Shown here: positions 8,783-11,060 of the stretch, piece after piece | How the letters are laid out: the number at the start of each line of letters is the position of its first letter | How positions within the stretch are numbered: position 1 is the stretch's first letter | Assembly: GCF_003334255.1 (NCBI RefSeq) | Contig: NZ_QOWU01000012.1 | Reading direction: 5' to 3' (one strand) | Length of the DNA stretch: 64,000 nucleotides | Source of the DNA: Escherichia coli | GTDB taxonomy: Bacteria > Pseudomonadota > Gammaproteobacteria > Enterobacterales > Enterobacteriaceae | Program-made: the position numbers and the translations under genes | Notes under the pieces: generated by a model | The model's input: the letters and a program-made list of their open reading frames with translations, nothing else | Database searches by the model: none | What the model was told of the DNA's origin: nothing

Positions 8783-9571
8783 TTATTTCAGTTCGAGTTC
8801 GTTCATTGCAGCAATGCTGAAACCGCCGTCAACGTGGACCACTTCACCGGAGATACCGGCAGAGAGATCGGAGCACAGGAATGCCGCAGAGTTACCCACA
8901 TCTTCAATAGTAACGGTACGGCGAATCGGGGTAACGGCTTCGCAATGAGCCAGCATTTTGCGGAAGTCTTTGATACCGGAGGCCGCCAGAGTACGGATCG
9001 GACCAGCAGAGATGGCGTTAACACGCACACCTTCCGGACCCATCGCGTTCGCCATATAGCGCACGTTCGCTTCCAGAGACGCTTTTGCCAGACCCATAAC
9101 GTTGTAGTTCGGGATAGCGCGCTCAGCGCCAAGGTAGGAAAGGGTCAGCAGGGCAGAACCCGGATTCAGCATGGAGCGGCAAGCTTTTGCCATTGCAACG
9201 AAGCTGTAGGAGCTGATGTCGTGGGCAATTTTGAAGCCTTCACGGGTAACGGCGTTAACATAGTCACCATCCAGCTGATCGCCAGGTGCAAAACCAATAG
9301 AGTGTACGAAACCGTCAAATTTCGGCCAAACTTTCCCCAGTTCAGCGAACATGGTGTCGATGCTGGCATCTTCTGCAACATCGCACTGCAGAACGATGTC
9401 AGAACCCAATTGAGCGGCAAATTCTTCTACGCGGCCTTTCAGTTTGTCGTTCTGGTAGGTGAATGCCAGTTCAGCTCCTTCGCGGTGCATCGCCTGAGCG
9501 ATACCGTAGGCGATGGATAGTTTGCTGGCAACACCGGTTACCAGAATGCGCTTACCGGAAAGAAAACCCAT
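8783..9571 (-). CDS. fabI: Enoyl-[acyl-carrier-protein] reductase (NADH) FabI
   Basis: 262 aa; [26 protein letters not shown]...; SDR-type enoyl-ACP reductase. Confidence 0.96.
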
Positions 9572-9699
9572 AGCTTTAATCCTTATTGTTGATGCTTGTT
9601 GTGCCTGAAAATCAGGCGATTCGTCGTTTTAGTAAACAGTACGAACAGATAAACGGTTATTATAATCAACCTGGCTGTGAGTAGCTATAGTTGCCAGGT

Positions 9700-9790
9700 C
9701 CGACCGGAGCAGGCTGCGGCAGGGGGGGCGCTTTTCCCCTCACCCTAACCCTCTCCCCAGAGGGGCGAGGGGACCGTATTGTGCAAATAT
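9700..9790. repeat. GC-rich imperfect palindromic intergenic repeat (family not assigned)
   Basis: cccctcaccctaaccctctcccc / agaggggcgagggg inverted segments; overlaps the 3' end of the ycjD reading frame. Confidence 0.4.
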
Positions 9791-10186
9791 TGTTACCCCA
9801 GCAACAAACAGGCTCATACAGCCCCTAACCCTTTCATGGCGATGGCTGGGACGGTTCAGACCTTGCCGAATATTCTCCAGCACCGTCTCCTCATTACAAT
9901 CAATCTCGTTATTCCAGAAACGCAGCACGGTCCAGCCCTGCGACTCAAGCCAGCTAGTGCGCCTGGAATCATAGGCAACTGCTAAATCATGCTGCCCACC
10001 ATCCAGCTCAACGACTACACGCGCCGAGCAGCAAGCAAAATCGAGAATGTAGCTCCCCACTGGATGTTGACGGCGAAATTTGAAATCACTAAAACGTCGG
10101 CTGCGAAGATATCGCCAGAGCTTTCGTTCCTGCAAAGTGAGATTGCGTCTTAAATCACGCGCATTTGATTTAATTTTATCTATCAC
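9740..10186 (-). CDS. ycjD: DUF559-family protein YcjD (C-terminal ~30 aa read into a GC-rich repeat)
   Basis: 148-aa ORF; N-terminal ~115 aa match YcjD (MIDKIKSNARDLRRNLTLQERKLW...); the tail ...GPLAPLGRGLG is encoded by repeat sequence. Confidence 0.7.
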   Translation of the reverse strand: MIDKIKSNARDLRRNLTLQERKLWRYLRSRRFSDFKFRRQHPVGSYILDFACCSARVVVELDGGQHDLAVAYDSRRTSWLESQGWTVLRFWNNEIDCNEETVLENIRQGLNRPSHRHERVRGCMSLFVAGVTIFAQYGPLAPLGRGLG

Positions 10187-10253
10187 CTCATTCTGACAAG
10201 ATTTAATCTTTTGTCAGAATGAGGTGAATAATCTGGAAGGAGGATTCAGAAAA

Positions 10254-11060
10254 TTAGCGATCTTTACGCCACGCATCCGCCGTCAATGCCTCGCCAAAAT
10301 GACCGGCAATCAGCCGTTTGGTGAGTTCATGCAGCGGCGATGCCAGCACATCCGCGGTGCTGCCTCGCTCGACAACCTCGCCCTGATGCATCACCAGCAC
10401 CTGGTCGCTAATGTGCTTCATCATTCCGATATGCTGGGTAACATAAATATACGAAATGCCCTGTTTTTCCTGTAATTCCAGCATCAGATTAATCAACTGC
10501 GAACGCATCGACATATCCAGTGAAGCGAGGGCTTCATCGGCAATAATGACTTTTGGGCGCAATATCAGCGCGCGCGCCAGACCCAGACGCTGTTTTTGTC
10601 CGGGTGCCAACATATGCGGATAGTAACTGACGTGATCCGGTAGCAGCCCAACCATACGCATCGTTTCAATAATCTGTTTGCGACGCTGTTCCGGTTCCAG
10701 GTCGGTGTTCAGGCGCAGTGGAAAATCCAGAATTTGCGAGATACGTTGACGGGGATTCAACGAGGTCGAAGGATCCTGAAAAATCATGCGAATACGCTGA
10801 CTGCGGAAGGAATAATCGCCAAAATGCAGTGGATGATCGTCAATCAATAACTCGCCGCTGGTAGGCTCTATCATTCCCGCCAGCATTTTTGCCAGCGTGG
10901 ATTTACCCGAACCATTCTCGCCAATAATCGCCAGTGTCTGGCCTTCACGTAGCGTAAAGCTCAAGGGTTTTACCGCTTCTACGGTCTGACGACGAAACCA
11001 GCCGGTCCGGTAGCGGAACGTTTTACTTAAATTACGCACTTCAAGCAGCGTTTCGATCAT
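10254..11060 (-). CDS. sapF: ABC transporter ATP-binding protein SapF
   Basis: 268 aa; Walker A GENGSGKST, ABC signature. Confidence 0.93.
   Translation of the reverse strand: MIETLLEVRNLSKTFRYRTGWFRRQTVEAVKPLSFTLREGQTLAIIGENGSGKSTLAKMLAGMIEPTSGELLIDDHPLHFGDYSFRSQRIRMIFQDPSTSLNPRQRISQILDFPLRLNTDLEPEQRRKQIIETMRMVGLLPDHVSYYPHMLAPGQKQRLGLARALILRPKVIIADEALASLDMSMRSQLINLMLELQEKQGISYIYVTQHIGMMKHISDQVLVMHQGEVVERGSTADVLASPLHELTKRLIAGHFGEALTADAWRKDR

Follow-up and report, generated by a model that had tools for sequence, protein, structure and literature searches.

BoxC elements, which form a dispersed family of GC-rich palindromes in Escherichia coli, were first described in the 1992 paper by Bergler et al. 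on envM (= fabI) (as cited in PMC4666352). Holder et al. (2015; PMC4666352) equated TMECOs with BoxC and with the PIT elements of Hoyne and Maher (2000, 2002); 23 TMECOs are reported in strain MG1655 and 19 in strain HS (PMC4666352). We analyzed a 64,000-nt stretch of E. coli DNA (hereafter "the window"; contig NZ_QOWU01000012.1 of assembly GCF_003334255.1), which covers the locus of that first description and in which ycjD, a small gene with a DUF559 domain located next to fabI, reads as a 148-codon open reading frame (ORF). Our best explanation of this ORF is a 106-bp collapse of an old duplication of the ycjD 3' end, in a gene family for which a BoxC end is native, together with a gene-BoxC cassette as its more tentative component; to this explanation as a whole we assign a probability of about 0.9.

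Intrastrand triplex formation has been demonstrated in vitro for sequences of the BoxC type, no common function was found among the genes flanking TMECOs, and Holder et al. reported higher sequence variability 1-500 nt from TMECOs as well as small deletions that leave a hairpin behind, i.e., the "palindrome effect" (PMC4666352). Published elements were described as always intergenic, with no linked genes or functions, whereas the window ORF ends inside its element; moreover, an adjacent antisense copy is the normal end of ycjD, and the published work on these elements does not mention a link to DUF559.

BoxC no. 9 and the 106-bp collapse at the end of ycjD

The features of the window that carry the argument are as follows.

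9736 to 9771, minus strand: BoxC/PIT/TMECO element, identical to MG1655 no. 9 (type "A mm") as listed in Table 1 of PMC4666352 and pointing in the same direction as ycjD (sense)
9740 to 10186, minus strand: ycjD, collapsed allele; 148-aa ORF with a GTG start and a TGA stop at 9740-9742 (ORF list and translation)
9857 to 10177, minus strand: DUF559 domain (Vsr-like, PD-(D/E)XK fold), intact, residues 4-110 (Pfam PF04480, E = 2.9e-48)
9868 to 9890, no strand assigned: 23-nt stretch GAATATTCTCCAGCACCGTCTCC, the crossover or slippage site of the deletion, present twice in K-12, 106 bp apart, and once in the window
9785 to 9867, minus strand: rest of a decayed second copy of the ycjD 3' end, non-coding in K-12 and read in the window as residues ~107-134 (RQGLNRPSHRHERVRGCMSLFVAGVTIF)
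9821 to 9845: BoxC-like relic within the decayed second copy, in which CCCTAACCCTTTC matches CCCTAACCCTCTC of BoxC

A reading made from the letters of the window, without database searches (the sequence-only reading), had described a ycjD frame that runs into a GC-rich palindrome at 9700-9833 and ends in the peptide ...GPLAPLGRGLG, and both the coordinates and the peptide are correct (ORF list, translation). The last 10 codons of the ORF and its TGA (C-terminal end ...GPLAPLGRGLG* / ...YGPLAPLGRGLG*) lie inside a GC-rich imperfect palindrome with 11-nt arms at 9735-9745 and 9763-9773 that are 91% complementary. The minus strand of 9736-9771 reads CCCTCGCCCCTCTGGGGAGAGGGTTAGGGTGAGGGG, a 36-mer identical, letter for letter, to MG1655 TMECO no. 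9 (29 min, antisense, upstream of fabI; one of the list of 23 in PMC4666352), with the three blocks C-arm, G-arm and G-arm; the third block, GGGTGAGGG, provides the stop codon of the fused ORF. In elements of the "mm" types, the stem has a conserved G·A mismatch. A search of the whole window with the TMECO consensus (CCCTCNCCC-N3-6-GGGNGAGGG-N3-GGGNGAGGG) gave one exact match, at 9737-9771 on the minus strand, as compared to 0 expected from shuffled sequence. The single-stranded element is predicted to fold into a hairpin (-12.5 kcal/mol, z = -2.8), and its 41-nt core matches a median of 4 places per E. coli genome (megablast), i.e., it belongs to a dispersed family. The REP/BIME consensus GCCKGATGCGRCGY...RCGYCTTATCMGGCCTAC had no match in the window at up to 3 mismatches, and an Rfam scan of 9400-10400 returned chance-level miRNA-type matches on hairpins only, all far under the gathering scores. 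The repeat is Box C, one of the families that had been put forward for comparison.

The ORF corresponds to ycjD of E. coli; this small DUF559 gene occupies the sapF-fabI interval in strains of phylogroups A, B1 and C. The gene order on the minus strand of the window is sapF (10254-11060), the ORF (9740-10186) and fabI (8783-9571). Like other members of the YcjD/DUF559 family, the protein shows a full-length domain match (PF04480) and scores above the cut-off of the NCBIfam YcjD equivalog NF007294 (261 bits; cut-off 218; residues 1-117 covered), and it keeps all invariant DUF559 residues, i.e., D49, E60, D62, H66, R76, W91-N92-N93 and others (family alignment columns). It differs from the family in its length, 148 aa rather than 117 or 121, and in its C-terminal 38 residues, which have no counterpart in the family profile. 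The expectation that the DUF559 part would end around residue 115-117 agrees with these matches, which end near residue 110-117 (Pfam, NCBIfam). Pfam found only DUF559 and REase_MTES_1575 in the YcjD protein, both PD-(D/E)XK domains, and the closest solved structure is 3HRL, a Neisseria endonuclease-like protein; another protein with the Vsr-like PD-(D/E)XK endonuclease fold is VsrA of Caulobacter (PMC12907096). The relation of YcjD to Vsr and 3HRL is a similarity at the level of the fold, and YcjD is accordingly treated here as a putative nuclease. PADLOC gave no match, and PHROGs gave only weak matches, to families without known function.

When the whole sapF-fabI spacer was aligned pairwise to that of K-12 (NEB5-alpha), a single 106-bp gap was found and the other 682 positions were identical. 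K-12 YcjD has 117 aa. On the K-12 coding strand, the first copy of the 3' end reads ...ETVLENILQELNRRSPSP*, a decayed second copy of the 3' end (ETVLENIRQGLNRPSHRHERVRG...) follows ~50 nt on, and the canonical BoxC comes next. As expected for a deletion between short direct repeats, or collapse of a tandem duplication, the window has lost exactly one unit, and the junction lies in the longest identity shared by the two copies (23 nt). The TGA in the hairpin loop of the second copy is located 17 nt from CTGAAC, not 18 or 30 nt, and is thus out of frame (from the alignment); therefore the collapsed frame stays open until the third block of the sense BoxC, whose TGA closes it.

The course of events was as follows. 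In every E. coli lineage examined, the 3' end of ycjD and the adjoining BoxC were once duplicated in tandem (period 106-119 nt); the first copy has the stop inside the antisense BoxC hairpin, and the second is decayed and followed by the canonical sense BoxC (TMECO no. 9). In the window allele, one 106-bp unit was lost, via recombination or replication slippage in the 23-nt stretch common to both copies, and with it the native stop. The frame thereby extends over 31 further codons, through the decayed copy, whose own TGA is missed by one base, to the TGA of the sense BoxC. The predicted outcome is a protein of 148 aa rather than 117, in which the DUF559 domain is unaffected and a new 38-aa tail derives from formerly non-coding DNA.

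An antisense BoxC as the native end of YcjD-type genes

In the divergent E. coli strains Q65 and N96, the first copy of the 3' end encodes ...LSPSPQPSP* on CCCTCACCC-CAA-CCCTCTCCC-TGAAA-GGGCGAGGG, which is a complete TMECO on the opposite strand. While Q65 (121 aa) and N96 (120 aa) keep this three-block element, 12 bp of the antisense BoxC are missing from K-12-type ycjD, where the hairpin alone is left and the protein has 117 aa (L002 1868-1900 as compared to L006 and L005). The 12-bp loss accounts for the 12-nt difference between K-12 and ST69/ST182 that was noted without explanation in PMC12817139. Both this deletion and the 106-bp collapse of the window exemplify the variability and the small deletions published for TMECO surroundings (PMC4666352). 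The stop inside the antisense BoxC is what the sequence-only reading had missed: it was right about the fusion, the domain end, a stop near codon 118 elsewhere and Box C, and wrong about the mechanism.

The same gene end was observed in other Enterobacteriaceae. Of the top 120 homologues in the database, nearly all that come from Enterobacter, Klebsiella, Kluyvera, Lelliottia, Leclercia, Phytobacter, Scandinavium and Franconibacter have 120 aa; their C-terminus is ...PSPRPSP*, in some ...PSPRPSPWKGEGE. In every enterobacterial case examined, nt 340-374 of the gene are an antisense type-B TMECO, from which the final 7 residues (PSPRPSP or SPSPQPSP) and the stop are read, and a sense type-A TMECO is found 12-250 nt downstream; the offsets in enterics are +12 nt for the antisense BoxC and +58 to +168 nt for the sense BoxC. 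The junction between gene and BoxC occurs at no fewer than six chromosomal sites, i.e., hemW|yggM, cysP|yfeX, sapF|fabI and three singletons. Across 16 enterobacterial loci, nucleotide identity was 68% in the domain, 48% at third codon positions and 48% in the 12-nt spacer, as compared to 97.8% in the 21-nt motif CCCTCACCCnnnCCCTCTCCC. This difference between the motif and the third positions indicates that the constraint is on the DNA motif and not on the peptide. Conservation of the PSPRPSP tail as protein was considered and rejected, as each of the three reading frames is used for the motif, which moreover continues beyond the stop codon. These data show that a BoxC ending is the native state of this gene family.

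Tandem amplification between two BoxCs was also seen outside E. coli. In Klebsiella quasipneumoniae (L012, 6352-6556), a 66-bp unit that starts in the antisense BoxC hairpin at the end of the DUF559 gene is repeated 3.1 times (95% matches), which is a second case beside the 106-bp duplication of E. coli.

The association of TMECO-type motifs with DUF559 extends beyond the Enterobacteriaceae. We used at least 80 loci from a scan with one genome per species (1.14 Mb; Gamma-, Beta- and Alphaproteobacteria, Chloroflexi, Bacteroidia and others). Among the loci listed in the scan, 65 of 85 domain ends had a hairpin of the CCCTCTCCC/GGGAGAGGG type within a few tens of nt, i.e., about 75%, as compared to 4.7% of 4,124 control ORF ends in the same loci. 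Strict three-block motifs were concentrated near the domain: 97 of 156 (62%) lay within 250 nt of a DUF559 domain, a region that makes up 3.5% of the sequence (80 loci listed). In the 80 listed loci, a motif was found upstream of the gene in 35, mostly as a sense copy 50-100 nt before it, and downstream in 38, mostly as an antisense copy at +5 to +15 nt. The frame of the double C-block with respect to the gene varied, all three being represented (counts 17, 5 and 14), giving tails of the form PSPxPSP, LTPxLSP or PHPxPLP. One point counts against these numbers, namely that the query used to rank the 80 loci contained the SPSP tail, a possible source of selection bias, and the search was hence repeated with the domain only. 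In this domain-only search (1.84 billion representatives), a BoxC-like peptide followed the domain in 75 of the top 145 representatives and preceded it in 31, as compared to 4 of 658 control windows. TMECO-type motifs are thus strongly associated, at the DNA level and across phyla, with this DUF559 subfamily.

At 10 or more loci, the unit [BoxC-like linker]-DUF559-[BoxC-like linker] was located in frame within a host gene whose ORF is unbroken; these loci include the following.

HrpA-like helicases (L038, L040): unit between the DEAD and Helicase_C domains
Valyl-tRNA synthetase (ValRS), valS (L057, L070): unit between the catalytic and anticodon-binding domains
DNA methyltransferases (L043, L053, L050, L081, L082): unit in frame
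trpF (L062): unit in frame

The hosts are Betaproteobacteria, Chloroflexi, Bacteroidia and Alphaproteobacteria, and the linkers are Pro/Gly-rich. Related Anaerolineae ValRS without the insert have a plain loop of 12-14 aa at the site and no BoxC-like peptide there; the linkers are therefore part of the insert. As in-frame units in conserved genes, these inserts resemble inteins with homing endonucleases and the Rickettsia palindromic elements. They differ from inteins in that no Hint or other splicing domain was detected by Pfam in the two hosts scanned (the HrpA-like helicase of L040 and the ValRS of L057), and, unlike Rickettsia palindromic elements, they hold a full nuclease domain. The E. 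coli unit, by comparison, is free-standing and intergenic. Three ValRS fragments without a DUF559 insert (P0145, P0164 and P0238) showed short BoxC-like peptides elsewhere (e.g., ...TPGPSPVENHNSGGERA..., ...SGEGPSPLP...), which may be solo in-frame insertions of the repeat.

One may ask whether the BoxC beside DUF559 is merely a generic 3' hairpin, acting as a terminator or stabilizer of mRNA, or a GC-rich by-product, with no specific link to the gene. GC-rich palindromes are indeed common after genes, most BoxC copies of E. coli are far from ycjD, E. coli without ycjD retain some BoxCs, and no biochemical link is known. An incidental hairpin, however, would not account for the excess over control ORF ends given above, and what is conserved across phyla, and read in three frames, is a specific three-block sequence beyond a mere hairpin. 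The motif also lies upstream of the gene in 35 of the 80 listed loci, and the repeat travels with the gene to new sites, including the in-frame sites in valS and hrpA, while related empty sites lack it. In addition, published tests found no terminator activity (as cited in PMC4666352). We consider an incidental pairing unlikely, although it keeps some real weight.

Age, direction and recurrence of the collapse

Two copies of the 3' end were present in all five E. coli lineages examined (K-12, 2013C-4225, no107, Q65 and N96), which span 86-100% identity, N96 being the most divergent (86%). The two copies are 76% identical in K-12 (106-nt period) and 86% identical in N96 (119-nt period); in K-12 they are too diverged for Tandem Repeats Finder, which did not detect the duplication, and pairwise alignment was used instead. 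As the copies are 76-86% identical and as all five lineages carry both, the duplication is old and the single-copy form of the window is derived.

The opposite direction, in which the 148-aa single-copy form would be ancestral and the 117-aa form would have arisen by a 106-bp tandem duplication, has in its favor that the single-copy arrangement is structurally simpler and that tandem duplications do occur at such loci, as the Klebsiella array illustrates. This direction is highly unlikely given that all divergent lineages have two copies, including N96, and that the divergence between copies makes the duplication old, while the flanks of the window allele are 100% identical to K-12. Furthermore, the single-copy alleles are hybrids of the lineage-specific copy 1 and copy 2, with three different junctions.

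A junction-spanning query matched the window allele in 40 complete-genome records, with one 100% identical piece each (3,377 records with the region; 5,426 genomes), although these 40 records hold several assemblies of the same strains, such that the independent carriers are fewer. Carriers include HS, NCTC86, "167" and NDM3-6. A second collapsed allele, in a B1-type background and with the crossover in GTGCTGGAGA, was found in 4 complete genomes and many draft contigs, and a third junction, in CTGAACCG, was found in a metagenome assembly. The collapse thus took place independently on three or more occasions, each with its own crossover point, the two further events having used shorter identities of 10 nt and 8 nt; for a deletion between short direct repeats there is nothing unusual in this. 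ycjD itself is present, in single copy, in 3,378 of the 5,426 complete E. coli genomes, and blastn found no diverged second ycjD copy in these 5,426 genomes. Accordingly, collapsed alleles are uncommon, being found in 40 + 4 of about 3,378 ycjD-bearing complete genomes. Besides the thin count of independent carriers, two further points speak against our account of the collapse: the direction, i.e., deletion and not duplication, was deduced from distribution and divergence rather than from a rooted tree, and the 148-aa product is a predicted protein.

A 148-aa form shared by all strains, with a tail under selection, had been named beforehand as the outcome that would speak against a fusion. What we found is an ORF restricted to these 40 of about 3,378 ycjD-bearing complete genomes, identical among carriers and annotated by PGAP as a pseudogene; in NCTC86 and HS, which are 100% identical to the window over the ORF (9740-10186), the equivalent of window 9845-10186 is a pseudogene "missing C-terminus". 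That the tail is nonetheless a selected functional extension, e.g., a membrane-anchoring or interaction segment, could be argued from the intact DUF559 domain, from the persistence of the allele in several clones and from a hydrophobic stretch in the tail (CMSLFVAGVTIFAQY). We regard this as very improbable: the tail comes from decayed non-coding sequence plus a repeat, and further E. coli database proteins have many other accidental tails (129-160 aa) from indels in BoxC. The carriers being identical in sequence, they offer no variation for a test of selection.

The two causes offered by the sequence-only reading, i.e., insertion of the repeat in or next to the gene and a change of the stop codon near codon 118, both predict what is seen at first sight, as the tail is encoded by a repeat and most other strains do stop at codon 118 (K-12, 117 aa). 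Neither cause survives the comparison with K-12. BoxC no. 9 is at the same position there, with identical flanks, and the native stop was not mutated but is absent together with the 106-bp segment between the 23-nt direct repeats, the junction lying in that repeat; an origin by insertion or point mutation is accordingly exceedingly improbable.

Tandem repeats are a classic source of assembly collapse, but outside the 23-nt core one position in four differs between the copies, which makes them easy to assemble, and the allele occurs in independent complete assemblies of HS (NC_009800, CP092639, CP185286, CM173443) and NCTC86 (CP019778, LR217818) and in many other strains, such that the chance of an artefact is negligible; the collapse is thus real and recurrent.

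Overall, the preferred explanation, i.e., collapse of an old 3'-end duplication, accounts for the window ORF. The duplication, the 12-bp deletion of K-12 and the recurrent collapses would all have occurred because the repeat-rich 3' end is intrinsically unstable, and hairpin- or triplex-prone DNA nearby may raise the rate of deletion.

The sapF-fabI interval and a possible BoxC-nuclease cassette

According to PMC12817139, ycjD occupies the sapF-fabI interval in phylogroups A, B1 and C; the other phylogroups have eefRABCD there instead. We found the two corresponding haplotypes (window 9695-10253; L017 10124-18017), i.e., ycjD with its BoxCs (~0.5 kb) or eefRABCD (~7.9 kb). Two features mark the limits of the ycjD haplotype.

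9695 to 9735, no strand assigned: limit of the ycjD-specific haplotype on the side of fabI; clear matches to eefRABCD strains end at 9694 (megablast)
10183 to 10227, no strand assigned: perfect 17-nt inverted repeat TCACCTCATTCTGACAA / TTGTCAGAATGAGGTGA between sapF and ycjD, with the GTG start of ycjD in the distal arm

Weak similarity to the eefRABCD haplotype persists as far as the sense BoxC, at or near whose outer edge the two haplotypes begin to differ (alignment with strain A42). The sapF-side edge is fuzzy: a diverged hairpin is common to the two haplotypes, and four synonymous differences between them fall within the last five codons of sapF. In A42, the same hairpin is found with a compensatory T/A to C/G change (CATTCTGA/TCAGAATG as compared to CATCCTGA/TCAGGATG), which suggests that the inverted repeat is a conserved sapF terminator into which the start of ycjD is built.

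E. coli strains that we assign to phylogroups A, B1 and C have 13-30 TMECOs per genome, those assigned to D, E and F have 6-15, and those assigned to B2 have 1-2. The highest band then coincides with the groups that carry ycjD, which is the expected direction, confounded by phylogeny. The three bands themselves (about 13-30, 6-15 and 1-2) are those of Supplementary Table S1 of PMC4666352. In E. coli, a solo BoxC pair always consists of one type A and one type B element in inverted orientation (PMC4666352). At one such site, hrpB-mrcB, pair no. 1+2 of MG1655 (L101 290-385) takes up 117 bp including its flanks, the B2 strain JJ1887 (L102) has 15 unrelated bp in its place, and the context of the hrpB stop codon differs between the two strains. 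For a miniature inverted-repeat transposable element (MITE), terminal inverted repeats and a target-site duplication at a clean empty site would be expected; the solo pairs are inverted, and the B2 allele offers those 15 bp, with no duplication, in place of a clean empty site.

We infer that BoxC and YcjD-type nuclease genes form one cassette, and that the solo pairs of E. coli would be gene-less derivatives of it, because their inverted A + B layout is the same as that around the gene. In its full form, this proposal holds that BoxCs are the terminal repeats, or gene-less derivatives, of a widespread YcjD-type (Vsr-like) cassette that moves as [BoxC]-nuclease-[BoxC], either between genes, with ycjD as the resident E. 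coli copy, or in frame inside essential genes, where the stop-free C-rich strand of BoxC would serve as a Pro/Gly-rich linker, and that the nuclease may act on BoxC DNA. We put this forward tentatively, at somewhat less than even odds. Weighing against it are the E. coli lineages without ycjD, which still carry 1-15 TMECOs; the "empty" hrpB-mrcB site, at which no target-site duplication is visible (in one B2 strain); and the finding of Hoyne and Maher that these elements have no promoter, terminator or conjugation effect (as cited in PMC4666352).

The closest analogy for such a cassette is the REP/REPIN family with its RAYT genes. As in that system, a dispersed family of GC-rich palindromes is accompanied by a nuclease gene, in single copy or in a few copies, that is flanked by the repeats in inverted orientation, with solo repeat pairs elsewhere in the genome. 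The flanking holds for the DUF559 nuclease, which has antisense and sense BoxCs on its 3' side in enterics and, in other phyla, is preceded at 50-100 nt by a sense copy and followed at 5-15 nt by an antisense one. The likeness is one of analogy only: the repeat is BoxC, the REP consensus being absent from the window, and YcjD has a PD-(D/E)XK Vsr-like domain, not that of an HUH/Y1 (IS200/IS605-type) transposase, and is thus not a RAYT. In the open-access literature, we found no paper that links DUF559 or YcjD to BoxC, PIT or TMECO.

Taken alone, the feature of the window is a minor matter of annotation, i.e., a strain-specific 3' rearrangement that explains why HS- and NCTC86-like strains have a ycjD of 148 aa or a ycjD "pseudogene". 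What lies directly behind it is ordinary: the deletion is recurrent, the allele is already annotated by PGAP as a pseudogene, and the frame ends in a repeat known since 1992. Earlier work on BoxC dealt with triplex formation and with instability, and found no origin, partner protein or function for it. A constant partnership with one nuclease family, conserved in the DNA itself, would give BoxC a candidate cognate enzyme, as RAYTs are for REPs, and YcjD a candidate substrate; if true, action of the nuclease on BoxC would also account for the published instability of the DNA close to BoxCs. With the in-frame copies in valS and hrpA, nuclease genes would have a further route into essential genes, one that needs no splicing. 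Both ideas about this partnership are directly testable in E. coli K-12.

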